The position numbers and the translations under genes are program-made. Source: Pristiophorus japonicus (Eukaryota). From it: 64,000 nt of DNA. The stretch spans positions 45,694,001 through 45,758,000 of the forward strand of contig NC_091991.1 in assembly GCF_044704955.1 (NCBI RefSeq). The letters are read 5' to 3'. Position 1 is the stretch's first letter, and the number at the start of each line of letters is the position of its first letter. The notes under the pieces are model-generated. The model searched no databases. It had not been told where the DNA came from and saw nothing but the letters and a program-made list of their open reading frames with translations. Shown here piece after piece: positions 23,010-60,400 of this stretch.

Positions 23010-24636
23010 TATTCTAACTGAGTAACTGAAAGAAATTAGTATTAGTAAAAACATCGTACAGGAGAAATTAATGGGACTGAAATCCAATAAATCCCTTGGA
23101 CCTGATGGCCTACATCCTAGGGTTTTGAAAGAGGTGACTTTGGAGATAGTGGATGCATTGGTTGTCAGCTTCCAAAATTCCATAGGTTCTAGAATGGTTC
23201 CCGCAGATTGAAAGGTAGCTAATGTAACCCCGCTAGTTAAGAAAGGAGGGAGAGAGAAAACGGGGAATGATGGACCAGTTAGCCTGACATCAGTAGTAGG
23301 GAAAATACTAGAATCTATTATTAAGGATGTGGTAACAGGGCACTTGGAACAAATAATATGATTGGGCAGAGTCAACATGGATTTATGAAAGGAAAATCAT
23401 GTTTGACAAATCTGTTAGAGTTTTTTGAGGTTGTAATTAGCAGACTAGATAAGGGGGACCAGTGGATGTGGTTTATTTGGATTTTCAGAAGGCATTCGAT
23501 AAGGTGCCACACAGGAGGTTATTGAACAAAATTAGGGCTCATGGGATTGGGGGTAATATACTAGCATGGATTGAGGATTGGTTAAAGAACAGAAAACAGA
23601 GAGTAGAAATAATCGGGTCATTTTCAGGTTGCCAGGTTGTAACTAGTGGGGTATTGCAAGGAACAGTGCCTAGGCCTCAGCTATTCAGAATCTATATCAA
23701 TGATTTGGATAAGGGGACCAAATGTAATATATTCAAGTTTTCTGATGATACAAAGCTAGGTAGGATGCAAAGAAACTTCAAGGGATATAGACAGGCTAAG
23801 TGAGTGGGCAAGAACATGGCAAATGGAATATAATGTGGAGAAATGTGAAGTTATCCACTTTGATAGGAAAAATAGAAAAGCAGAGTATTTTTTAAATGGT
23901 GAAAGATTGGGAAATGTTGATGTTCAGAGGGACCTGGGTGTCCTTGTACACAAATCACTGAAAGTTAACATGCAGGTACAGCAAGCAATTAAGAAAGCAA
24001 ATGGTATGTTGGCCTTTATTACAAAAGGATTTGAGTATAAGATTAAATATGTCTTACTGCAATTATATAGGGCCCTGGTGAAACCACACCTTGAGTATTG
24101 AGTACAGTTTTGGTCTCCTTACCTAAGGAAGGATATACTTGCCATTGAGGGAGAGCAACGAAGGTTCACCAGACTGATTCCTGGGATGGGGGGATTGACC
24201 TATGAGGTGAGATTGCGTAGACTAGGCCGATATTCTCTAGAATTTAGAAGGATGAGAGGTGATCTAATTGAAACATACAAAATTTTACATGGTAGATGCA
24301 AGGAGGATGTTTCCTCTGGCTGAGGAGTCTAGAACCAGGGGTCACAGTCTCAGAGTAAGGAGTTGGCCATTTAGGACTGAGATGAGGAGAAACCTCTTCA
24401 CTCAGAGGGTGGTGAATCTTTGTAATTCTCTACCCCAGAGGTCTGTGGAGGCTCAGTGGTTCAGTATATTCAAGACAGAGATTGATAGATTTTTGGATAT
24501 TAAGGGAATCAAAGGATATGGGGATAGTGCAGGAAAGTGGAGTTGAGGTAGAAGATCAGCCATGATCTCATTGAATGGCGGAGCAGATTTGAGGGGCCGA
24601 ATGGCCTACCCCTGCTCCTATTTCTTATGTTCTTAT
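23010..24636 (+). mobile_element. CR1 LINE, 5'-truncated, RT to 3' tail
   Basis: DVVYLDFQKAFDKVPH, FSDDTKLG, EYNVEKCEVIHF, TRGHSLRVR; tail tcttatgttcttat. Confidence 0.96.
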
Positions 24637-28985: not shown

Positions 28986-30688
28986 ATTGTTGATTCTGCT
29001 GCTGCTCTTAATACCGCCCTCTCCAAACCATGTACATAAGAACACGCATGATGCAGTACAACAGAGACACTGCCAGCAATTCTTAAAGGGACACACTCAA
29101 CTTTCAGGCAAGTTTAGATTTTTGCTTTTGGACTGGCATTTGTACATTTTATTGGAGTAGTGGCTTAGTGCAATACATTTAAAAAGTTGTTAAAATGTGC
29201 AGGGAGTGCTGCTGGATGTTTGCAAGGCTTTGGCTGTTAAAGGAAGGTCTTAGAGTTAAAGGAAGACTACTTTCTCCCAGTCCTGGGGGCTTTAGTTGCA
29301 GTCCCCCTTGGGCTGCAGCATCATATGGAGATGGAGCAGAGGCAGCAGGAGTGAGGAGGAAGCAGAAGAGGAAAAAGGGGAAGGAAGGAGGCAACCGAGA
29401 CAGCCCCTTTCTGGTTGGGATATCCAGGATCGAATCCGCCAGTGATATCAGTGAACCCAACTCCAATTCCCCTTTCAACATTTGTCCCACACCCTACCTT
29501 ACCTTCCCTCTGTTACTGACCATCACAGCGTCCTCTTGGCTACAATGCTGAAATAAAAGCCACCACAAAGCACTCCTTCCAACCCAACTTTATCCATATA
29601 TGCATCCAATAGTACATCATAAAATCAACTAATCACCCTTGTGCATTCCCTTAGTGACTGTCTTGCGTGTGCCTTTGTCTATCCTAGAGATGTCCCCCAG
29701 TGCTACCCCAGTGGCTGCAATCTGGCTGGTGGAAGGCTGCTGACTTTCATTGGGGGATACTGCAGATTGCCTTGCAGGATGACCTGGAGGAGTTGGTGGC
29801 TGGGAGTGTGAAATTGAGTGATGTTGTTTCTGCTTCTTCTTCACTCTTTTCTCCCTCTTCTTGGTCAACCACTGGCTGGGCAGGTTGCATTTCTTGAGGG
29901 GGTGTGAAATGAGGAGGTCTAAAGAGTAGGGTTGTGGTGAGGGGAGGGGGTAAAGCAAGAGCTGCATGCTTTCACCATGTGTAACTAATAAATCAGAAGA
30001 GAATGTGGGTTGAGGGGGAAGTGGGATGTGAGAAGGAGAATAACATATGAGGATACCAGCATCATGTATTCTTTCAGCCCTGCCATTGGCCAAGGGCTCA
30101 GCCATGCCCCTGCTAAGAATGATTAGCACCGTCTCCTCCAAGGGGGTGAGGTGAAGCAAGGAATCTGCGGTGTGCTTGAGGTTTGTTAGAGATTGCTAGT
30201 TAGTGAGCGATGGGGAGAGGGCGGTTGTGCATTGAATAGTGTGAGAGCCTAGTGGTGCAGGTGGTAGGCGATGGCTTTTGAAGATGCATTCACTGAGCTT
30301 GACAACTCGTCTGAGGTCATGAAACTTCCTTGGGCACTGGAGCCAGGTTCTGGGGATAACTCTGCCGGCAGTGATGGATTTGGCCATCGGGTCCTCCCTC
30401 CTTCTTTCTAGAGGGCTACTTTTAGCACTTTTTATGTACAGAAGGTATTGTGTATCTGTAAAGCATACACTCCCATGTTCCGCCACCAGGGAGCTCATCC
30501 CCTGAAGTCCCAAGGGATCCCAGCATCCCTTGGGAGCACTGTATATAAGCCGGCCCCTAAGGCCTGTTCCTCACTCTAGAGTGTCTTATTAAAGACTGAG
30601 GTCACTATTACTTTAACCTCCCTGTGTGCAGCCTCATCTGTGTTAGGAACACAATAACTGGCGACGAGAATACGAATCCAATGCAAAG

Positions 30689-31560
30689 ATGCAGCAAACT
30701 GTGGGCATCCTGGAGAAGTTCTCGGAGGGTGAGGACTGGGAAGCCTATGTCGAACGGCTACACCAGTACTTTGTAGCCAACGAGCTGGATGGAGAAGGAA
30801 GCGCTGCAAAAAGCAGAGCGGTCCTCCTCACAGTCTGCGGGGCACCGACCTACAGCCTCATGAAGAATCTTCAGGCTCCGGTGAAACCCACAGATAAGAC
30901 GTGTGAGGAGCTGTGTACACTGGTTCGGGAGCATCTTAACCCGAGGGAGAGCGTGCTGATGGCGAGGTATCGGTTCGACACGTGCCAGCGATCTGAAGGT
31001 CAGGAAGTGGCGAGCTACGTTGCCGAGCTAAGGCAACTTGCACGACAATGTGAGTTTGATGGCTACCTGGAGCAAATGCTCAGAGACTTTTTTGCACTGG
31101 GCATTGGTCACGAGACCATCCTACGAAAACTTTTGACTGTAGAGACACCGACCCTCAGTAAGGCCATTGCAATAGCACAGACGTTTATGTCCACAAGTGA
31201 TAACACCAAACAAATCTCTCAGCACACAAGTGCGAGCAATGTTCATAAATTAACTGGAACTGTGTTTGCGAGCAGAAATGTACAGGGCAGAACCCACGAG
31301 TCTGCAACTGCCAGCAGGCCTCAGGTGACCCAGATGACTCAGAGTCCCCAACAATGGATGAATGCAAGGCAATTCACACCTTGTTGGCGTTATGGAGACT
31401 TCCATTCAGCCTATTCATGCCACTTCAAATGTTTGTAAGAGCTGTGGAACAATTGGGCAGCTCCAACGAGCTGTAAGCTCTGCAAAACCTGCTAACCACC
31501 ACATGGCAGAGGAAGATCGGTCCATGGTGGATCAAAGCAATTTCGAGCCTCAGAGAGAGG
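30689..31560 (+). pseudogene. gag: Gypsy gag (degenerate tandem CCHC knuckles, frameshifted)
   Basis: DWEAYVERL, MARYRF, YVAELRQLARQCEF, CWRYGDFH...C. Confidence 0.93.
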
Positions 31561-31566
31561 AGGCAG

Positions 31567-34500
31567 ATGCTGAAGTACACGGGGTGCACACATTTTTGTC
31601 AAAGTCTACCTATAATGCTAAACGTAAAATTGAATGGCTTACCCGTATCCATGGAACTGGACACTGGCGCTAGCCAATCCATCATGAGTAAAAAGATGTT
31701 TGAGAGACTGTGGTGCAACAAGGCATTCAGACCAGCCCTGAGCCCCATCCACACGAAACTGAGAGCATACACCAAAGAGCTTATCACTTTCCTGGGCAGT
31801 GCCATGGTCAAGGTCACCTACGAGGACACGGTGCATGAACTGCCACTCTGGATTGTCCCGGGCGATGGCCCCACACTGCTTGGAAGGAACTGGCTGGGCA
31901 ACATCCACTGGAACTGGAATGACATCCGAGTGCCATCACATGTCGATGAGGCCTCATGTACACAGGTTCTTAACAAATTTCCTTCCCTTTTTGAGCCAGA
32001 CATTGGAAACTTTTCCGGGGCGAAGGTGCGGATCCACTTGGTCCCAGACGCACGACCCATTCACCACAAGGCGCGAGCGGTACCTCACATGATGAGGGAG
32101 AGAGTGGAAATCGAGCTGGACAGGCTGCAACGCACGGGCATCATCTCCCCAGTGGAATTCAGCGAGTGGGCCAGCCCGATTGTTCCAATACTCAAAAGTG
32201 ATGGCACGGTCAGGATTTGCGGCGATTATAAAGTAACTATTAATCGTTTCTCGCTACAGGACCAATTCCCGCTACCTAAGGCAGACGACCTATTTGCGAC
32301 GCTGGAGGAGGCACGACGTTCACCAAGCTCGACCTGACTTCGGCCGACATGACGCAGGAGCTGGAGGAGTCTTCGAAGGGCCTCACCTGCATCAACACAC
32401 ACGAGGGACTGTTCATCTACACAGATGCCCGTTTGGAATTCGGTCGGCTGCAGCGATCTTCCAGAGAAACATGGAGAGCCTACTCAAGTCGGTCCCACAC
32501 ACGGTGGTCTTTCAGGACGACATATTGGTCACGGGTCAGGACACCGCCGAGCAACTACAAAACCTGGAGGAGGTCCTCCAGCGACTGGATCGCGTAGGGC
32601 TGTGGCTGAAGAGGTTGAAATGCGTCTTCATGGCAAAAGAAGTGGAGTTTTTGGAGAGAAAATCGCGGTGGACGGCATTAAGCCCACAGACACCAAGACA
32701 GAGGCTATCAGGAATGCGCCCAGGCCACAGAATGTCATGGAGCTGCGGTCGTTCCTGGGACTCCTCAACTATTTTGGTAACTTCCTACCGGGGTTAAGCA
32801 CCCTTTTAGAGCCCCTACATGTGTTATTGCGCAAAGGTGAGAACTGGGTATGGGGAAAAAAACAAGTAATTGCTTTTGAGAAAGCCAGAAACATTTTATG
32901 CACCAACAAGCTGCTTGTATTGTATAACCCGTGTAAAAGACTTGTGCGAGCATGTGACGCGTCGTCGTACGGAGTCGGGTGTGTATTACAACAAGCTAAC
33001 GTTGCGGGGAAGTTGCAACCTGTCGCCTATGCTTCCAGGAGCTTGTCGAAGGCCGAGAGGGCCTACAGCATGATTGATAAAGAGGCATTAGCGTGTGTGT
33101 TCGGGGTAAAGAAAATGCATCAGTACCTGTTTGGCCTCAAATTTGAGCTGGAAACCGATCACAAGCCCCTCACATCCCTGTTCGCTGAAAACAAGGGGAT
33201 AAATACTAATGCCTCAGCCCGCATACAAAGGTGGGCACTCGCGCTATCAGTGTATAACTATACCATCCGCCACAGGCCAGGCACCGAGAACTGTGCGGAT
33301 GCTCTCAGTCGGCTACCATTGCCCACCACGGGGGTGGAAATGGCCCAGCCTGCAAACTTGTTGATGGTGGCGCAGCCCGCAGACTTGTTGATGGTCATGG
33401 AAGCATTTGAAAATGATAAGTCACCTGTCACGGCCCGGCAGTTTAGGACTTGGACCAGCCAAGATCCTCTGCTGTCCCGAGTAAAAAACTGTGTACTGCA
33501 TGGGCAGCATCCCCGTTGAAATGCAAGAGCCAATCAAGCCGTTCCCGCGGCGAAAGGACGAGCTGTTCATTCAGGCAGACTGCCTGTTGTGGGGTAACTG
33601 CGTAGTGCTACCAAAAAAGGGCAGGGAGACATTCATCTCAGATCTCCACAGCACACACCCGGGTATAGTAATGATGAAAGCGATAGCCAGATCCCACGTG
33701 TGGTGGCTCGGTGAGACGGTCGGGAGCCTTTCTTTCCCTGGTGGACCGCGCCTAGGTACAAATGTCTGTTCTGGTGTGTTGGCTGTGCCCTCGCTGGGCT
33801 GGCGTGTTGTTGGCCCTGCAGGGCTGCTAGGTGAGCCTGGCCTTGCTGGGCTGTTGGGCGTGATGGGTTCGATTTCCTGGTCCGGCGTGGTGTCGTTGAT
33901 CCTTTGGGTGTGTGTTGTGGGCTCTGACTTGGAGTCCTGTATATGGCAATGCAGCGTGTGTGCTCAGTTGAGCAACGTGCCCAGAGAGGCACCACTAAGT
34001 TTGTGGTCCTGGCCCTCCAGTCCATGGTCGAGGATCTATGTCGACAATGTGGGCCGGTTTCTCGGTAAAATGTTCCTGGTGGTGGTGGATGCTTTTTCAA
34101 AATGGATTGAATGTGAAATAATGTCAGGAAGCACCGCCACCGCCACCATTGAAAGCCTGAGGGCCATGTTTGCCACCCACGGCCTGCCTGACATACTGGT
34201 CAGTGACAACGGGCCATGTTTCACCAGTGCCGAATTTAAAGAATTCATGACCCGCAATGGGATCAAATATGTCACCTCGGCCCCGTTTAAACCAGCCTCC
34301 AATGGGCAGGCAGAGCGGGCAGTACAAACCATCAAACAGATCCTTAAACGAGTCACAGAAGGCTCACTCCAAACCCGCTTGTCCCGAGTACTGCTCAGCT
34401 ACCGCACGAGACCCCACTCGCTCACAGGGGTGCCCCCGGCTGAGCTACTCATGAAAAGGACACTTAAAACCAGACTCTCGTTGGTTCAACCCAACCTGCA

Positions 34501-35020
34501 TGATCAGGTAGAGAGCAGGCGGCAGCAACAAAATGTAAACGATGGTCGCGCCACTGTGTCACGGGAAATTAATCTGAATGACCCTGTGTATGTGCTAAAT
34601 TATGGACATGGTCCCAAGTGGATCGCGGGCACGGTGATAGCTAAAGAAGGGAATAGAGTGTTTGTAGTCAAACGAGACAATGGACACATTTGCAGAAAGC
34701 ACCTGGACCAAATGAGGCTGTGGTTCACAGACTGCCCTGAACAACCCACAGCAGACACCACCTTTTTCGAGCCCACAACACACACCCAAAGGATCAACGA
34801 CACCACGCCGGACCAGGAAATCGAACCCATCACGCCCAACAGCCCAGCAAGGCCAGGCTCACCTAGCAGCCCTGCAGGGCCAACAACACGCCAGCCCAGC
34901 GAGGGCACAGCCAACGCAGCAGAACAGACATTTGTACCGAGGCGGTCTACCAGGGAAAGCAAGGCTCCCGACCGCCTCACCTTGCAAATAGTTTTCACTT
35001 TGATTTTGGGGGGGGAGTGA
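31567..35020 (+). pseudogene. pol: Gypsy pol (protease, RT, RNase H, integrase), several frameshifts
   Basis: LDTGAS; WASPIV, RICGDYK, FQDD; CDASSYG, ETDHKPL, NCADALSR; H..H/C..C, SDNGP, AERAVQT. Confidence 0.96.
33710..33924 (-). repeat. Inverted copy of 34769-34981 inserted into the integrase coding region
   Basis: Reverse complement matches base for base over 33778-33924, with a few differences over 33710-33777. Confidence 0.97.
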
Positions 35021-35360
35021 TGTTGTGTATCTGTAAAGCATGCACTCCCATGTTCTGCCACCAGGGAGCTCATCCCCTGAAGTTCCAAGGGATCCCAGCA
35101 TCCCTTGGGAGCACTGTTCTTCACTCTGGAGTCTCTCATTAAAGACTGAGGTCAGTGTCACTTTAACCTCCCTGTGTGCAGCCTCATCTGTGTTAAGAAC
35201 ACAATAGAAGGCAGTTCAGCTTTAAGAGCTGCAGTCTGCCTTGAAGAAGCGCAGGCTAGCTTTAAGTGTCGCTAGCCTTGCTCCAGTGACGTGAAATTCG
35301 GCCCCCTGTGAGCACACAGCCTGTCAGCAGCATATTCCACGCTAGGTGTGTGCTCTTATT

Positions 35361-36931
35361 GGGCCCAAGTTTCGGGCCGCGCCTAGAACGGCGCAGCCCC
35401 GACCTGGACGCCCGTTTTTCGCGCCACAAAATGCGCCTAAATAAAATTACAGATTCTCCGGCTCCCTGCTGGTCTACTTGAGTCAGGCGCGGCGCAGCAC
35501 GAGCAGTTGGGGGCGGAGCTAGGTCCCTGCGCTGAAAACAGTGCCGGGACCTCTGCACATGCGCGCTACAATGGGCGCGCATGTGCAGTAGCTCCAGGCG
35601 CCCATAAATGTGTGGGAGGGGCACGAAGCATGCAGCCCCTAGCCTGGCCGAATGGCCTCACTGGGGCTGCGTGCATAAGGCTGCCTCCCACGCCCAGCTC
35701 CTGCTTCCTCCCGACCCGACCCGACTCCCGCTTCCCCCCCCGCCCCCGGACTGGACCCGACCCACGCTCCTCCCTCCCGCCCACCCGACCTGACCTCCCT
35801 CTCCCTCCCTCCCTCCGACCCGAACCGAATCGACCTCCCTCCGCCCCCCCGACCCGACCCGCGCTCCCGACCCCGGACCCGTCCCGACCCAACGCCACCT
35901 ACCTGTAAATCTGGTGCTGGGGATGGGTCCTGCCCGAAGTCTTGGGCCCGGCCCATTCAGCCTCCCCCACCTTCTCCTTTCCCCCCTTCTCCTTTCCCCC
36001 CCTTCTCCTTTCCCCCCCTTCTCCTTCCCCCCCTTCTCTTTTCCCCCCCTTCTCTTTTCCCCCCTTCTCCTTCCCCGCCCCTCTCCTTTCCCCCCTTCTC
36101 CTTCCCCTTCCCCTCTCTTTCCCCTTCTCCTCTCCCCCCCTTTCCCCTTCTCCTCTCCCCCTTCCCCTTCTCCTCTCCCCCCCTTCTCTCCCCCTTCTCC
36201 CCCTTCCCTCCCTTCCCTCCCCCTTCTCCCCCTTCCCTCTCCTCCTTCCCATCCCTCCCCGTTCCCCCCCTCTCTCCCTCTACCCCCCTCCTCCCCCTCC
36301 CCTCGCTGTCAGAAACACAGACACTGACAGACAGAGAGTGAGAGACACACAGACAGAGATAGAGACACTGACCGAGACACACTGGGGGCGGCGGGGGTGG
36401 GGGGCATCCCAGCATGCTGTTGGAGGGCTCCCGGTGCTGCAGTCGGTAAGTAGAAAATGTTTTATTTGATTTTGAAAAAAATTATTTCTTATTAATTTTT
36501 TTGATTGATTCATTGGTTGATTTATTTATGTTTTTATCATTTATTATTGATGATGGCTCTTTATTTGTAAAACTGAAGTGTTTAATGTTTGTAAACTTCC
36601 CTTTAAACCCCCCCGCCATTCCCTACGCCTGATTTGTAACCTACGCCTGATTTCCTAAAATGTAGACAAGGTTTTTTCTAGCGTACAAAAATCTTCACTT
36701 ACTCCATTCTAAGTTAGTTTGGAGTAAGTTTTCACTGCCGAAACTTTGAAAACAGGCGTAAGTGGCCGGACACGCCCCCTTTTGAAAAAAAAATTCTGTT
36801 CCAAAGTGAAACTGTTCTAACTGACTAGAACTGGAGCAAACTAAATGCCGAGAATTTGAATTTCTAAGACACTCCGTTCTACACCAGTTGCTCCAAAAAA
36901 TCAGGAGCAACTGAGGCTGTAACTTGGGCCC
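35361..36931. mobile_element. GG..CC MITE family B containing a ~340-bp polypyrimidine tract (~35960-36303) and GACA/GA repeats
   Basis: TIR gggcccaagtt / aacttgggccc; related in reverse orientation to 46353-46891 and 47470-48601. Confidence 0.85.
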
Positions 36932-39254: not shown

Positions 39255-41110
39255 ACAACAACTTGCATTTATATAGCGGCCTTAACATAGGTACTTCACA
39301 AAGGAAAAGCTGATGCCAAGCACTAATCGGGTTTGGGGAACAACTGAAAGCATGGTCTAGCAGATAGGTTTTGAGGAGGATGTGAACATAAGAACATAAG
39401 AAATAGGAGCAGGAGAAGGCCATACAGCCCCTCGAGCCTGCTCCGGCATTTAATACGATCATGGCTGATCTGATCATGGACTCAGGTCCACTTCCCCGCC
39501 CGCTCCCCATAACCCCTTATTCCCTTATTGTTTAAGAAACTGTCTATTTCTGTCTTAAATTTATTCAATGTCCCAGCTTCCACAGCTCTCTGAGGCAGCG
39601 AATTCCACAGATCCACAACCCTCAGAGAAGAAATTTCTCCTCATCTCAGTTTTAAATGGGTGGCCCCTTATTCTAAGATCATGCCCTCTAGTTCTAGTCT
39701 CCCCCATCAGTGGAAACATCCTCTCTGCATCCACCTTGTCAAGCCCCCTCATAATCTTATACGTTTCGATAACATCACCTCTCATTCTTCTGAATTCCAA
39801 TAAGTAGAGGCCCAACCTACTCAAATTTTCCTCATAAGTCAACCCTCTCATCTCTGGAATCAACCTAGTGAACCTTCTCTGAACTGCCTCCAAAGCAAGT
39901 ATATCCTTTTGTAAATATGGAAACCAAAACTGCACGCAGTATTCCAGGTGTGGCCTCACCAATACTCTGTACAACTGTCGCAAGACTTCCCTGCTTTTAT
40001 ACTCCATCCCATTTGCAATAAAGGCCAAGATTCCATTGGCCTTCCTGATCACTTGCTGTAACCTTTTGTGTTTCGTGCACAAGTACCCCCAGGTCCCGCT
40101 GTACTGCAGCACTTTGCAATCTTTCTCCATTTAAATAATAATTTGCTCTTCGATTTTTTTCTGCTAAAGCGCATGATCTCACACTTTCCAACATTATACT
40201 CCATCTGCCAAATTTTTGCCCACTCACTTAGCCTGTCTATGTCCTTTTGCAGATTTTGTGTGTCCTCCTCACACATTGCTTTTCCTTCCATCTTTGTATC
40301 GTCGGCAAACTTGGCTATGTTACACTCAGTCCCTTCCTCCAAATCGTTAATATAGATTATAAATAGTTGGGGTCCCAGCATTGATCCCTGCGGCACCCCA
40401 CTAGTTACTGATTGCCAACCAGAGAATGAACCATTTATCCCTACTCTTTGTTTTCTGTTCGTTAGCCAATACTCTGTCCATGCTAATATATTACCCCCAA
40501 CCCCATGGACTTTTATCTTGTGCAGTAACTTTTTATGTGGCACCTTGTCAAATGCCTTCTGGAATTCCAAATACACCACATCCACTGGTTCCCCTTTATC
40601 CACCCTGTTCGTTACATCCTCAAAGAATTCTAGCAAATTTGTCAAACATGACTTCCCTTTCATAAATCCATGCTGACTCTGCTTGACCGAATTTTGCTTT
40701 TCCAAATGTCCTACTACTGCTTCTTTAATAATGGACTCCAACATCTTCCCAACCACAGATGTTAGGCTAACTGGTCTATAGTTTCCTGCTTTTTGTCTGC
40801 CTCCTTTTTTAAATAGGGGCGTTACATTTGCAGTTTTCCAATCTGCTGCGACCTCTCCAGAATCCAGGGAATTACCACCAATGCATCCACTATCCCTGCC
40901 ACTACTTCTCTTAAGACCCCAGGATGCAAGCCATCAGGTTAATTGGAGGTGGCAAGATAGAGAGTTAGGGAAGAGAGATCCAGAGATTAGGATCAAAATG
41001 ACTCAAGGCTATGCTACTGATGGTGGAGCAGTGGAAGAGAGATGCCTAGGAAGCCAGGGTCCGCAGACCAAGGCTTCAGCTGTGACGGGCTGGAGGAGGT
41101 TAGAAGTACA
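39255..41110 (-). mobile_element. Old L2 3' fragment split by a young CR1
   Basis: aacaacaacttgcatttatatagcg tail; L2-like sequence resumes after ~40938. Confidence 0.55.
39385..40937 (-). mobile_element. Young CR1 LINE, 5'-truncated
   Basis: QHGFMKGKSCLTNLLEFF, SGVPQGSMLGP, FADDTK, LVRPHLEYCVQFW; (TCTTATGT)n tail. Confidence 0.97.
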
Positions 41111-52562: not shown

Positions 52563-52844
52563 TCTGGTTTGTAATAAGTGCTTTAGGGGTTTAAGAACTT
52601 TTATTGACTATATTTTGAGAGAAAATGCAAAGTAAGGGAATTTTGCATGCTGATGTATAGCATCTTTTTTGTTTCATGGATTATGTTTAATTTGGACTTC
52701 TTGCCTGCAGCACTGCAAGCAACACTTGACCAGTGTTGAGATTTGCTTAGATCTAGTCTTTCAAATAATCAAGTTCAAGTGCAAACCAATAAGATGGGTA
52801 TATTGTATTTAATTGGAGTTTAAGATGGAATATAACACACTAGT

Positions 52845-55800
52845 TGTTATGTATGTAAACCTGTAATTACCATGTCTAACCACCAGAGGGCTTATCCGCT
52901 GGAGTCCCAAGGGATCCCACAATCCCTTGGGAGCCCCTGTATATCAGGAGGCCTCACAAGCTGCAGAGGCGCTCTGAGATCTGTAATAAAGGACTACGGT
53001 CACACTTACTTTGAGCTTGCAGTCTCTAGTCTGACTCTTTATTCAAGACATAACAACTGCCGATGAGATACAGATTACGAACCCAATGCAAAAATGCAGA
53101 GAACTGTGGGCATCCTGGAGAAATTTTCGGAGGGAGATGATTGGGAAACTTTCGTGGAGCGACTTGATCAATACTTCGTGGCCAACGAGCTGGAAGGAGA
53201 AGGGAACGCTGCTAAACAAAGGCCGATCTTCCTCACCGTTTGCGGGGCACCAACGTATGGCCTCATGAAAAATCTGCTCGCTCCAGCAAAATCTACAGAC
53301 AAGTCGTACAATGAGTTGTGCACACTGGTCTGGGAGCATTTAAACCCGAAGGAAAACGTTCTGATGGCGAGGTATCGGTTCTGCACGTACAAGATGTCTG
53401 AAGGCCAGGAAGTGGCGAGCTATGTTGCTGAGCTAAGGCGCTTTGCAGGATATTGCAAATTTGAAGAGCACTTGGAGCTTATGCTCAGGGACTTCTTTGT
53501 ACTTGACATTGGCCATGAAGTAATATTTCGCAAACTTTTGACTGTAGAGACCCCAACCTTGAGTAAAGCCATAGCGATAGCCCAGGCGTTTATCTCCACC
53601 AGTGACGATGCCAAACAAATTTCCCAGCACAATAGTGCTGCTGCAAATACTGTGAACAAAGTAACATTGTTTTCGAATTGAAATGCACCTGGCAGGACTT
53701 ACACGCCTGTAGCTGCACTTCCGCAGATGACTCAGAGTCCGCCATCAAGGGTGATGAATACAAGGCAATTAACACCTTGTTGGCGCTGCGAGGGTGATCA
53801 TCGATTCCATTCATGCCGCTTCAAAGGATACGTTTGCAAGGGTCGTGGAACAATGGGACACCTCCAACGTATGTGCAGGCGAGCTGCAAACCCTGCTAAT
53901 CCTGCAAACCACTATGTTACAGAGGAGGACAGATCCACAGTGGATCATGACGAACCAGAGCCTCAGACTGAGGAGGCAGAGGTATATGGGGTGCACACGT
54001 TTACCACAAAGTGTCCCCCAATAATGCTGAAAGTTGAATTCAATGGACTCCCGGTGTCCATGGAGCTGGACACGGGCACAAGCCAGTCCATAATGAGTAA
54101 AAAGACTTTTGATCAATTGTGGTGCAACAAGGCTTCAAGGGCCAGTCCTGACTCCCATTCATACCAAATTTAGAACGTACACAAAGGAACTGATTCCTGT
54201 AATTGGTAGTGCTACCGTAATGGTCTCCTACAATGGAGTGGTGCACGATTTACCACTCTAGGTGGTACCGGGCAATGGCCCCACGCTGTTCGGCAGGAGT
54301 TGGCTGGGAAAGAGACGCTGGAACTGGGACGATATCTGAGCGTTTTCGTCCGTTGGCGACACCTTATGTGCCCAGGTCCTAAGCAAGTTCCCTGCGCTGT
54401 TCGAACCAGGCATCAGGAAGTTCCAAGGAGCAAAAGTGCAGATTCATTTGATTCCGGGGATGTGACCCATCCATCACAAGGCAAGCGCGGTACCTTACAT
54501 GATGAGAGAGGGTGTGGAGATCGAGCTGGACAGGCTGCAATGAGAGAGCATCATTTCGCCGATCGAATTTGATGAGTGGGCTTGTCCGATTGTTCCAGTC
54601 CTCAAGGGAGACGGCACCATAAGAATCTGTTGTAATTACAAAGTAACTATCAATCATTTCTCACTGCAGGATCAATACCCGCTACCAAAGGCAGACGACC
54701 TATTTGCGACGCTGGCGGGAGGGAAGATGTTCACGAAGCTGGACTTGACCTCGGCCTACATGACGCAGGAGCTGGAGGAATCTTCGAAAGGTCTCACCTA
54801 CACCAACACGCACAAAGGTCTTTTCATTTACAACAGATGCCCGTTTGGGATTCGATCAGCCGCGGCGATATTCCAGAGGAACATGGAAAGCTTGCTGAAG
54901 TCGGTCCCCGCGCCGTTGTCTTTCAGGACGACATCTTGGTTACAGGTCGGAACACCGTCGAGCACCTGCAGAACCTGGAGGAAGTTCTTAGTCGGCTTAA
55001 TTGTATGGGGCTCAGGCTAAAACGCTCGAAGTGCGTTTTCCTGGCACCTGAAATGGAGTTCATGGGGAGCAGAATTGCGGCGGACAGCATCAGGCCCACT
55101 GATTCGAAGACGGAGGCAATCAAAAACGCAGCAAGACCACAGTACGTGACGGAGCTGCGGTCGTTTCTAGGACTCCTGAACTACTTTGGTAACTTCTTAC
55201 CGGGTCTTAGCACATTGTTAGAATCCCTGTACTCTTTACTGTGTAAAGGAGATGAATGGGTATGGGTTAAAAACCAAAAAAATGCCTTTGAGAAAGCTAG
55301 GAAGCTGTTATGTTCAAACCAATTGCTTGTGTTGTACGGTCCATGTAAACGTTTGGTACTAGCATGTGATGCAACAAGCTAATGAATTTGGGAAATTGCA
55401 ACTAGTTGCTTATGCATCCAGAAGTCTGTCTAAGGCCGAGAGGGCCTCTACAGTATGATCGAAAAAGAAGCGTTAGCGTGTGTTTACAGGGTAAAGAAAA
55501 TGCATCAATATCTGTTCGGGCTCAAATTTGAATTGGAAACCGATCATAAGCTGCTTATATCCCTGTTTTCTGAAAATAAGGGGGTAAATACGAATGCATC
55601 GGCCCACATCCAGAGATGGGCGCTCACGTTGTCTGCATACAACTATGCTATCCGTCACAGGCCAGGCAGAGAAAACTGTGCCGATGCTCTCAGTAGGCTG
55701 CCATTGCCCACCACCGGGGTAGAGATGGCACAGCCTGCAGATTCAGTTATGGTAATGGAAGCATTTGAGAGTGAGCAATCACCTGTTACCGCCCGACAGA

Positions 55801-57349
55801 TTAGAACCTGGACAAGCCAGGACCCCTTACAGTCCTTAATAACAAAACTGTGTGCTCCATGGGAGTTGGTCTAGTGTCCCGTTAGAGATGCAGGAAGAAA
55901 TGAAGCTGTACCGGCGGCGCAAAGATGAAATGTCTATACAGGCAGACTGCCTCCTATGGGGTAATCGGGTAGTTGTGCCAAAAAAGGGCAGGGACACTTT
56001 CATTAGTGATCTCCACAGTACCCACCCAGGCATTGTAATGATGAAAGCTATAGCCAGATCCCGCGTGTGGTGGCCCGGTATCGATGCAGACTTAGAGTCC
56101 TGCAGGCACAAATGTAATACATGTTCCCAGTTAAGCAATGCACCCAGGGAGGCGCCACTAAGTTTATGGTCTTGGCCCTTCAAACCGTGGTCTAGGGTTC
56201 ACGTCGACCATGCAGGCCCATTCTTGGGAAAAATGTTTTTAGTGGTTGTAGATGCGTACTCCAAGTGGATTGAATGTCGGCAAGCACGTCCGCTGCCACC
56301 ATTGAAAGCCTACGGGCCATGTTTGCCACGCATGGCCTGCCTGATGTCCTTGTAAGTGACAATGGGCCATGCTTTACCAGTGCCGAATTCAAGGAATTCA
56401 TAACCCGCAATCGGGTCAAACATATCACGTCTGCCCCGTTTAAGCCAGCGTCCAACGGTCAGGCAGAACGAGCAGTTCAAACAATCAAAAAGGGTAACTG
56501 AAGGCTCATTGCAGACTCGCTTATCCAGAGTCCTGCTTAGTTACCGCACAGGACCCCGCTCGCTCATCGGGGTCCCTCCAGCTGAACTGCTCCTGAAAAG
56601 GGCACTTAAGACAAGTCTCTCATCAGTCCACCCTGATCTACATGAACAGGTAGAAAGCAGGCGGCTTCAACAGAATACATATCATGATCGCGCAAATGTG
56701 TCACGAGAAATTGAAGTAAATGAATCCTGTATTTGTGTTGAACTATGGACAAGGTCCCAAGTGGATTGCTGGCACTGTTTTGGCCAAAGAGGGGAGTAGA
56801 GTGTTTGTGGTCAAACTCGCAAATGGACTCACCTACAGAATACACTTGGACCAAACCAAACTCACATTTACGGACTATCCAGAACAATCCACAATAGACT
56901 CTACCTTTTCCGACCCTCCAATACACACACAAGTGGCAACTGACCCAGCGGTTGACCACGAAGCAGAACCCATCACCCCCAGCAGTCCAGCAAGGCCAGC
57001 TGCGCAGCAGCCCAGCGAAGGCCCAACAAATGACTCACCAGCACCAGCATTTGCACCTAGATGATCAACCAGGGAAAGGAAGGCCCCAGATCGACTCACA
57101 TTGTAAATAGTTACACTCTTGACTTTGAGGGGGAGTGTTGTTATGTATGTAAACCTGTAATTACCATGTCTAACTACCAGAGGGCTTATCCCCTGGAGTC
57201 CCAAGGGATCCCACAATCCCTTGGGAGCACCTATATATAAGGAGGCCTTACAGGCTGGAGAGGCACTCTGAGATCTGTAATAAAGGACTACGGTCACACT
57301 TACTTTGAGCTTGCAGTATCTAGTCTGACTCTTTATTCAAGACATAATA
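52845..57349 (+). mobile_element. Full-length, mutated Ty3/Gypsy (Mag-like) LTR retrotransposon, copy 2 (different LTR subfamily)
   Basis: TSD CTAGT (52840-52844 and 57350-57354); 211-bp LTRs 52845-53055 and 57139-57349 (about 11 mismatches by eye); degenerate PBS tgccgatgag; PPT gagggggag. Confidence 0.98.
53094..57105 (+). pseudogene. Gypsy gag-pol with multiple stops, frameshifts and small deletions
   Basis: DWETFVERL, CWRCEGDH..C, LDTGTS, KLDLTSAY, FQDD, ETDHK, WWPGIDADLESC, SDNGP, AERAVQT. Confidence 0.96.
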
Positions 57350-57492: not shown

Positions 57493-60400
57493 TCATAGAA
57501 ACATAGAACATAGGTGCAGGAATAGGCCATTTGGCCCTTTGAGCATGCACCACCATTCAATAAGATCATGGCTGATCATTCCCTCAGTAGCCCTTTCCTG
57601 CTTTCTCTCTATACCCCTTGAACCCCTTAGCCGTAAGGGCCATATCTAACTCCCTCTTGAATATATCCAATGAACTGGCATCAACAACTCTCTGCGGCAG
57701 AGAATTCCATAGGTTAACAACTCTCTGAGTGAAGAAGTTTCTCCTCATCTCAGTCCTAAATGGCCTACCCCTTATCCTAAGCCTATGTCCCCTGGTTCTG
57801 GACTTCCCCAACATCGGGAACATTCTTCCCGCATCTAACCTGTCCAGTCCCGTCAGAATCTTATACATTTCTATGAGATCCCCTCTCATCCTTCTAAACT
57901 CCAGTGAATAAAGGCCCAGTTGATCCAGTCTCTCCTCATATGACAGTCCGGCCATCCCTGGAAATCAGTCTGGTGAACCTTCGCTGCACTCCCTCAATCG
58001 CAAGAATGTCCTTCCTCAGATTAGGAGACCAAAACTGAACACAATACTCCAGATGAGGCCTCACTAAGGCCCTGTACAACTGCAGTAAGACCTCCCTGCT
58101 CCTATACTCAAATTCCCCAGCTATGAAGGCCAACATACCATTTGCCTTCTTCACCTCCTGCTGAACCTGCATGCCCACTTTCAATGACTGATGAACCATG
58201 ACACCCAGGCCTCGTTGCACCTCCCCTTTTCCTAATCTGCCACCATTCAGATAATATTCTGCCTTCATGTTTTTGCCCCCAAAATGGATAACCTCACATT
58301 TATCCACATTATACTGAATCTGCCATGCATTTGCCCACTCACCTAATCTGTCCAAGTCACCTTGCAGCCTCATAGCATCCTCCTCACAGCTCACACCGCC
58401 ACCCAGTTTAGTGTCATCCGCAAACTTGGAGATATTACACTCAATTCCTTCATCTAAATTGTTAATGTATATTGTAAAGAGCTGAGGTCCCAGCACAGCC
58501 CTGCGGCACTCCACTAGTCACTGCCTGCCATTCTGAAAAGGACTCGTTTATCCTGACTTTCTGCTTCCTGTCTGCCAACCAGTTCTCCATCCATGTCAGT
58601 ACATTACCCCCAATACCATGCGCTTTGATTTTTCACAGCAATCTCTTGTGCGGGCCCTTGTCAAAAGCCTTTTAAAAGTCCAAATGCACCATATCCACTG
58701 CTTCTCCCTTGTCCACTCTGCTAGTTACATCCTCAAAAAATTACAGAAGATTCGTCAAGCATGATTTCCCTTTCATAAATCCATGCTGACTTGGTCTGAT
58801 CCTGTCACTGCTTTCCAAATGCGCTGCTATTTCATCTTTAATGATTGATTCCAACATTTTCCCCACTACTGATGTCAGGCTAACCGGTCTTTTCTTACCC
58901 GTTTTCTCTCCTTCCTTTTTTAAGCAGTGGTGTTACATTAGCTACCCTCCAGTCCATAGGAACTGATCCAGAGTCGATAGACTGTTGGAAAATGATCACC
59001 AATGCATCCACTATTTCTGGGGCCAGTTCCTTAAGTACTCTGGGATGCAGACTATCAGGCCCCGGGGATTTATCGGCCTTCAATCACATCAATTTCCCAA
59101 ACACAATTTCCTGCCTAATAAGGATATCCTTCAATTCCTCCTCCTCACTATACCCACTGTCCCCTAGTACATTCGGAAGGTTATTTGTGTCTTCCTTCGT
59201 GAAGACAGAACCAAAGTATTTGTGCAATTGGTCTGCCACTTCATTGTTCCCCATTATAAATTCACCTGAATCCGACTGCAAAGGACCTACGTTTGTCTTC
59301 ACTAATCTTTTTATCTTCACATATTTATAGAAGCTTTTTTTGCAGTCAGTTCTTATGTTGCCTGCAAGCTTCCTCTCGTACTTTATTTTCCCCCTCTTAA
59401 TTAAACCCTTAGTCCTCCTCTGTTGAATTCTAAATTTCTCCCAGTCCTCCGGTTTGTTGCTTTTTCTAGCCAATTTATATGTCTCTTCCTTGGCTTTAAC
59501 ACTATCCTTAATTTCCCTTGCTAGCCATGGTTGAGCCACTTTCCCCGTTTTATTTTTACTCCAGACAGGGATGTACAATTGTTGAAGTTCATCCATGTGA
59601 TCTTTAAATGTTTGCCATTGCTTATCCACCGTCAATCCTTTAAGTATCCTTTGCAGTCTATTCTAGCCAATTCACACCTCATATCGTTGAAGTTACCTTT
59701 CCTTAAGTTCAGGACCCTAGTTTCCGAATTAACTGTGTCACTCTCCTTCTTAATAAAGAATTCTACCATATTATGGTCACTCTTCCCCAAGGGGCCTCGC
59801 ACAACAAGATTGCTAATTAGTCCCTTCTCATTACACATCATCCAGTCTAGGATGGCCAGCTCTCTAGTTTGTTCCTCGACATATTAGTCTAGAAACCATC
59901 CCTAATAAACTCCAGGAAATCCTCCTTCACTGCATTGCTGACAGTTAGCCCAATCAATATGTAGATTAAAGTCACCCATGATAACTGCTGTATCTTTATT
60001 GCACACATCCCTTATTTCTTGTTTGATGCTGTCCCCAACCTCACTACTACTGTTTGGTGGTCTGTACACAACACCCATTAACGTTTTCTGCCCTTTGGAA
60101 TTCCGCAGCTCCACCCATACCGATTCCACATCATCCAGGTTAATGCCCCTCCTTACTATTGCATTAATTTCCTCTTTAACCAGCAATGCCACCCTGCCTC
60201 CTTTTCCTCTCTGCCTATCCTTCCTAAATGTTGAATACCCTTGGATGTTGAGTTCCCAGCCTTGGTCACCCTGGAGCCATGTCTCCGTGATGCCAATTAC
60301 ATCATATCCGTTAACTGCTGTCTGCGTAGTTAATTCGTCCACCTTATTCTGAATACTCCTCGCATTGAGGCACAGAGCCTTCATGCTTGTCTTTTTAACA

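Follow-up and report, generated by a model that had tools for sequence, protein, structure and literature searches.

A decayed Gypsy-type LTR retrotransposon of Pristiophorus japonicus carries, within pol, an inverted copy of its own pol 3′ end. The structure is real in the assembly, and we regard it, with a probability of roughly 0.55, as the neutral scar of one microhomology-primed template switch, likely made when a chromosome break was repaired early in the life of the copy. The case for neutrality comes from the commonness of such structures in the family and from the decay seen here. It adds one more case to a class of templated insertion that is already known, here within a decayed Gypsy copy. 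Positions refer to the window, the 64,000-nucleotide stretch of NC_091991.1 (45,694,001–45,758,000, forward strand) that was analysed; the assembly as a whole (GCF_044704955.1) comprises 5.92 Gb in 4,318 contigs.

The Gypsy copy and its inverted duplication

The element occupies 30446–35206 on the forward strand and is flanked on either side by an intact target-site duplication, GAAGG (30441–30445 and 35207–35211). Its 5′ LTR (30446–30656), with TATATAAG at 30542 and ATTAAA at 30588, is followed by a candidate primer-binding-site-like motif (30659–30668), and a polypurine tract-like G run (35008–35017) precedes the 3′ LTR (35021–35206). Gag-pol is broken into five reading-frame pieces. Pfam searches recovered an aspartyl protease, RT_RNaseH and rve (the integrase core) in Gypsy order, with gag-like matches from the first frame; the LTR pair, the target-site duplication and the order gag–protease–RT/RNase H–integrase together place the copy in Ty3/Gypsy. 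The LTRs differ by 11 substitutions over 184 aligned nucleotides (6.0%), and a 25-nt deletion in the 3′ LTR takes out the TATATAAG motif, which is absent there. The 5′ LTR keeps it, as the first-pass annotation pointed out, and the motif is also common in the family: at least one is retained in 80 of 96 sampled loci. Decay along the element is uneven, with about 14 rare letters plus the 25-nt deletion in the last 293 nt (34914–35206), whereas the 211-nt 5′ LTR has three and the neighbouring 145 nt none. At position 35251, the contigs of runs X2 and X4 in which the 3′ LTR continues into its flank have A where the assembly has G (depth approx. 6); this is another allele or another individual with the same insertion site. 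Elsewhere, the window holds a 28-nt tandem array at 1–950 and LINE-type RT copies at 23064–24636, 39388–40939 and 57500–59096, which lie 15–33 kb apart in opposite orientations and are approximately 73% identical.

The insert lies at 33710–33924 (215 nt, minus strand relative to its donor) and copies the 213-nt donor arm at 34769–34981, from which it is separated by an 844-nt spacer (33925–34768) holding the integrase core, located there by Pfam as the annotation had proposed. It had been described as the reverse complement of the donor; the inverted relationship stands, but the match is imperfect, at 96.3% identity with six substitutions and one 2-nt indel. Microhomologies that had been proposed at the two junctions, GGT at 33710–33712 (outer) and CTC at 33922–33924 (inner), are indeed common to the host site and the donor at the respective ends. 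The replacement of about 5 bp also held up: since 5 nt separate the two triplets in 84 of the 87 sampled copies for which we could place both flanks, 5 nt were lost at the insert, and the net gain is 210 nt. A second Gypsy copy in the window (52843–57347; LTRs 95% alike, target-site duplication CTAGT) has WWPGIDADLESC at the insert site, as had been noted, but it belongs to a related subfamily of only 74–78% identity, and much closer copies are present elsewhere in the genome.

No other inverted repeat above 90% identity was found among blastn self-hits across the 64 kb. In the predicted RNA fold the arms pair from end to end, in line with the earlier suggestion that a transcript would fold into a duplex. 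Both arms lie outside the LTRs, the donor ending 26 nt short of the polypurine tract-like run. Contigs of four runs were compared with 33400–35400; with up to 25,257 pieces per run the comparison was swamped by the family, and none among the longest pieces listed bridges a junction. A stop-free frame of 511 codons (33485–35020, forward strand) in the integrase region passes through the insert. We considered it as a selected protein and rejected this: the upstream pol lies in several frames and the insert is stop-free in one of its three frames, so that chance suffices, and the frame is probably incidental, the upstream pol being frameshifted. Fossil A-to-I editing was likewise rejected, as the six arm differences are of mixed types.

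Donor, age and uneven identity of the arms

When the genome was searched for both junctions, as the annotation had recommended, each pattern (allowing one mismatch and degenerate CpG sites) gave a single match in 5.9 Gb, its own locus, so the rearranged form never multiplied. The indel haplotype of the insert likewise matched only itself in the assembly. A wider search for spread of the variant was also fruitless: among 40 candidates scored out of 1,576, only the locus itself spanned the whole query.

For the donor comparison, 29 copies were picked on the integrase core. Over the inner 145 nt, the insert has no differences from its own arm and 1–10 from the 29 other copies, while none of 406 copy–copy pairs lies within one difference. 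Two minority letters common to both arms occur together in 3 of the 29 copies. Judged from these alignments, the putative template was either this element or a near-identical copy that went unseen, which agrees with the template switch from its own 3′ end that had been suggested. We considered a donor in another copy; the top matches did beat the element's own arm for the insert, but they had been selected on the insert, and among the 29 core-selected copies the inner arm matched its own arm only. Nor did an origin of the element's own 3′ end in another subfamily hold, as its 37-nt haplotype has one match, itself, and its rare letters are unlinked elsewhere. In the outer 68 nt, the element's own arm has four rare letters and the insert two plus the indel, with none in common.

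The arms differ at 6 of 213 positions, which is not significantly below the LTR divergence (p = 0.09, computed with an LTR difference of 12/184). We dated the duplication with a simple Poisson model, in which 4.5–6 rare letters are expected per arm over the life of the element. The likelihood peaks at time zero and is approximately three times lower at 35% of the element's age. Because no rare letter is common to both arms and because the arms differ at six sites, the model favours formation of the duplication at or soon after integration. The duplicated copy may have existed during the expansion of the family. Dating by divergence cannot separate reverse transcription from early repair.

Identity between the arms is unevenly placed. 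All seven differences (the six substitutions and the indel) are confined to the outer 68 nt (34914–34981), and 34769–34913 is identical to the insert. An identical inner run of at least 145 nt has a probability of approximately 0.002 under uniform placement, for a pattern that was noticed post hoc. Neither inner arm has any rare letter; 3 of 117 sampled copies are likewise free of them, and the probability of finding both arms in this state would be approximately 0.0007 if they had aged independently. The simplest account is that the inner 145 nt were probably homogenised by later conversion between the arms, and plain conversion still requires 1-in-40 luck over the zero rare letters. The alternatives are selection on the duplex, a second donor and polishing of the assembly. 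It is not clear that identity next to the loop is a general pattern, as the longest-run probabilities of seven other arm pairs ranged from 0.02 to 0.8, with two below 0.05. Y-chromosome palindromes, the arms of which are kept identical by conversion, offer a likeness to the inner arms, although they extend over many kilobases (PMC3723533) and the conversion proposed here is deduced from one identity run of 145 nt.

Inverted duplications across the family

A 24-nt arm pattern, with up to one mismatch allowed, gave 6,359 and 6,342 matches, so the family numbers at least 12,701 copies. We drew two samples, together 1.4% of the family and not chosen to find its youngest members. The first comprised the first 100 listed places of the arm pattern along C1, equivalent to 96 loci (L104–L199). 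The second comprised 96 short loci from similarity searches, a choice biased to the best matches and probably towards intact copies; 80 of these were re-fetched at 6.5 kb, three were extended for opposite-strand pieces and kept outside the pooled count, and 13 were not extended. Median LTR-pair divergence was 6.2% in the first sample (n = 65) and 5.4% in the second (n = 54), with a minimum of 2.4%, and the 6.0% of the window copy sits at the family median. The longest stop-free frames were 747 aa (96 loci) and 815 aa (80 loci) for a coding span of approximately 4.1 kb. There was no young copy among the 176 sampled loci and no stop-free frame above 815 aa in any of them.

Inverted repeats were scored at 88% identity or more within family DNA. 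The first sample had such duplications at 5 of 96 loci (L104, L114, L115, L121 and L155), with a sixth case, L167, at an LTR end with its donor in the flank. The second sample had none, either in the 96 loci at short length or, in family DNA, in the 80 loci at 6.5 kb, although 5 of the 80 had inverted pairs of other repeats within 6 kb. The contrast of 5/96 with 0/80 has p = 0.06. Pooled, 5 of 176 loci (2.8%, 95% interval 0.9–6.5%) extrapolates to 118–826 copies, a rate that is uncertain because the second sample gave 0/80. The type with a long spacer (2–3 of 176) extrapolates to approximately 18–620 copies.

Among the individual cases, L121 (3611–3984) repeats 383 nt of its 3′ end in inverted orientation across a 1,050-nt spacer, and L114 (832–1224) has 393 inverted nt across 1,009 nt. 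L115 (1063–1250) and L155 (991–1144) are fold-back palindromes at the 3′ LTR boundary, and in L115 the inverted piece stops precisely where the LTR begins. L104 (4824–6138; C1:48056500–48066400) has an inverted insertion in two segments, one of 1,177 nt (99.8% identity) and one of 142 nt (99.3%). Since the copied 1,177 nt take in approximately 400 nt past the 3′ LTR and differ at two positions, against 14 of 209 between the LTRs, this insertion formed in the chromosome, long after integration. L167 (5575–5650) has a perfect 76-nt inverted copy of flanking DNA from 415 nt away, which replaces the end of the 3′ LTR. Two smaller pieces lie outside the pooled count: 45 nt (95.6%) at L201 and 82 nt (87.8%) at L200.

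Several further observations were made on these loci. The L104 copy is nested in an older, oppositely oriented relative, and the inner end of its insertion lies no more than 2 nt from the donor position of the window insert (approx. 34769–34771), a common position that reflects chance or a preferred priming site. The spacers of the long-spacer set (the window copy, L114, L121 and L104) measure 844, 1,009, 1,050 and 1,077 nt, and those of two other inverted duplications 344 and 415 nt. L164 (1566–2255) and L200 (6459–7132) each contain an inverted 5′ LTR–gag piece, the match to the window copy ending at 31132 and 31136.

Origin and significance of the insert

Under repair, our preferred reading, a chromosome break would have cost 5 nt at approximately 33713. 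The 3′ single strand of the right-hand end would then have folded back at a 3-nt match (CTC/GAG) 844 nt away, polymerase would have extended the fold-back outward by 213 nt, and the new end would have annealed to the left-hand end through GGT/ACC, sealing the break. Arm-to-arm conversion would later have homogenised the inner 145 nt. A transcript crossing the locus would form a duplex, but so would those of many other loci of the family, and nothing singles this copy out for a part in silencing. We rank repair first because the two datable family events (L104 and L167) are chromosomal and because the signature fits. Against it, the likelihood maximum at time zero suits reverse transcription at least as well.

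The signature falls within the ranges that Pace et al. 2009 (PMC2671141) give for human repair-mediated duplications, of which they report 824 with a donor no more than 5 kb away. Like those, the insert is at least 50 bp long (215 nt) and lies in a transposable element, with its donor less than 5 kb away (844 nt), short microhomology (3 nt at each end) and a small deletion (5 nt), and it has neither poly(A) nor a target-site duplication of its own. The human set is described as having a mean of 162 bp and a maximum of 619 bp, with microhomologies of 2–9 nt and deletions of 1–15 nt, and at least one member is oppositely oriented, as here; self-templated inverted insertions fell outside that survey by the design its authors describe. 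Such duplications are also given for chicken, zebrafish and other mammals at 0.08–0.65 per Mb of repeat DNA, densities that are not comparable with our counts as the filter removed multi-copy donors. The spacers of 844–1,077 nt lie near an apparent donor-distance peak of approximately 1,200 bp in the human data, which the authors say is perhaps an artefact of their method (PMC2671141). Snap-back synthesis is a described repair route in the SD-MMEJ model (PMC5728401), and inverted templated insertions (MMB-TI) occur as human germline variants (PMC8421209). Both share with the insert an inverted copy of a nearby template set between microhomologies, but the templates reported in these surveys lie within approximately 100 bp or closer, compared with 213 nt copied from 0.8–1.3 kb in the window.

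A close rival reading, less probable than repair, ascribes the same neutral structure to reverse transcriptase acting before integration, with the minus strand folding back, 213 nt being copied toward the polypurine tract and the RNA template being rejoined 5 nt further on. Retroviral ‘deletion with insertion’ provides a precedent. The donor lies wholly within the element and 3′ of the acceptor, as we infer a minus-strand fold-back would need, and stops 26 nt before the polypurine tract. The arms have no rare letter in common, and their outer 68 nt differ at six sites, at or above the LTR divergence; several family events are also LTR-like in divergence and abut LTR ends (L115 and L155). On the other side, both family events that can be placed (L104 and L167) are chromosomal, the 45-nt piece at L201 has its donor 5′ of its acceptor, and our literature search found no paper on such inverted insertions made by retrotransposon reverse transcription.

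An artefact of assembly or polishing, affecting either the whole insert or merely the identity of the inner 145 nt, is improbable. A family of 12,700 copies does invite mis-mapping during polishing, but the insert has letters of its own and a 2-nt indel seen nowhere else in the assembly, and the repair-type microhomology, 5-nt loss and intact target-site duplication lie in a 187-Mb contig.

The first-pass annotation had gone further, suggesting a hairpin-RNA ‘killer’ allele. On this functional reading the locus would be transcribed in the germ line, the duplex would be diced or edited, the small RNAs would silence the family in trans, and selection would keep the inner arms paired. Some evidence is consistent with this, including the predicted fold, in which the inverted duplication gives the long stem that a killer-type hairpin needs, the 5′ LTR with its TATATAAG and few rare letters, the inner arms free of rare letters and an event that may date from the family's expansion. 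Single silencing loci are also known. Mu killer, which duplicates the TIRA end and part of mudrA and gives a hairpin of approximately 4 kb by read-through from a flanking gene, dominantly silences the active element (PMC3440606), and in koalas a single KoRV-A insertion in the 3′ UTR of MAP4K4 sets off piRNA silencing (PMC12264075). With Mu killer and Ac killer (PMC13635294, 10.1101/2020.01.07.897926) the window copy shares a transposon derivative, an inverted duplication and a potential hairpin RNA. The Mu killer stem, however, includes an element end, while that of the window copy would be 213 nt of pol tail. KoRV-A in MAP4K4 and antisense Tirant (PMC13226689) are animal examples of one copy silencing its family in the germ line, which is the role that the annotation had in mind, but as described they work while an invasion is still under way, through piRNAs made from copies inserted into host transcripts, in contrast to an internal hairpin in an old family.

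We nevertheless consider the killer allele very unlikely. To our knowledge, plant killers depend on RNA-directed DNA methylation, which vertebrates lack. With at least 12,701 copies, an estimated 118–826 inverted self-duplications (from 5/176) and other repeats lying in inverted pairs at 5 of 80 loci, sources of duplex are not limiting, and this single copy is one of an estimated hundreds. The arms are limited to the pol tail, outside the LTRs and promoter, and decay has gone unchecked in the outer third of the duplex. The LTR divergence of the copy is the family median, so it cannot be called a late one, and none of the 176 sampled loci retains a long open frame. Nor was a host-gene domain that might provide read-through found in 133 scanned frames (of 187 stop-free frames outside the two elements), a scan insensitive to short exons that returned only LINE RT/endonuclease matches and one match within the tandem repeat that opens the window. 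The killer reading is unsupported rather than refuted.

Least probable of all is a recent event with two donors, in which the inner 145 nt were templated by the element's own arm and the outer 68 nt by a different member of the family. It would account for identical inner and diverged outer arms, the insert shows the letter usual in the family at each of the four positions where the element's own outer arm is rare, and two-donor events are known from 20 cases in Pace et al. (PMC2671141) and from L104, but the outer haplotype of the insert matches only itself in the assembly and the element's own inner arm must still have zero rare letters.

On the likeliest explanation, the insert is nothing more unusual than a scar left by repair or copying in an element that is now dead. 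The modest value it has lies in belonging to a set that can be counted: a few percent of the copies in this large Gypsy family seem to have acquired self-templated inverted insertions, and a genome-wide measurement of them is feasible. The hairpins would, should they prove to yield silencing RNAs, be a vertebrate counterpart of Mu killer. It is a long shot that hairpins in 1–3% of 12,700 copies, including the one described here, had their stems kept paired by conversion and were the source of the double-stranded RNA that brought the expansion of the family to a halt; if true, this would be a route by which a retrotransposon burst ends itself, via its own repair scars.
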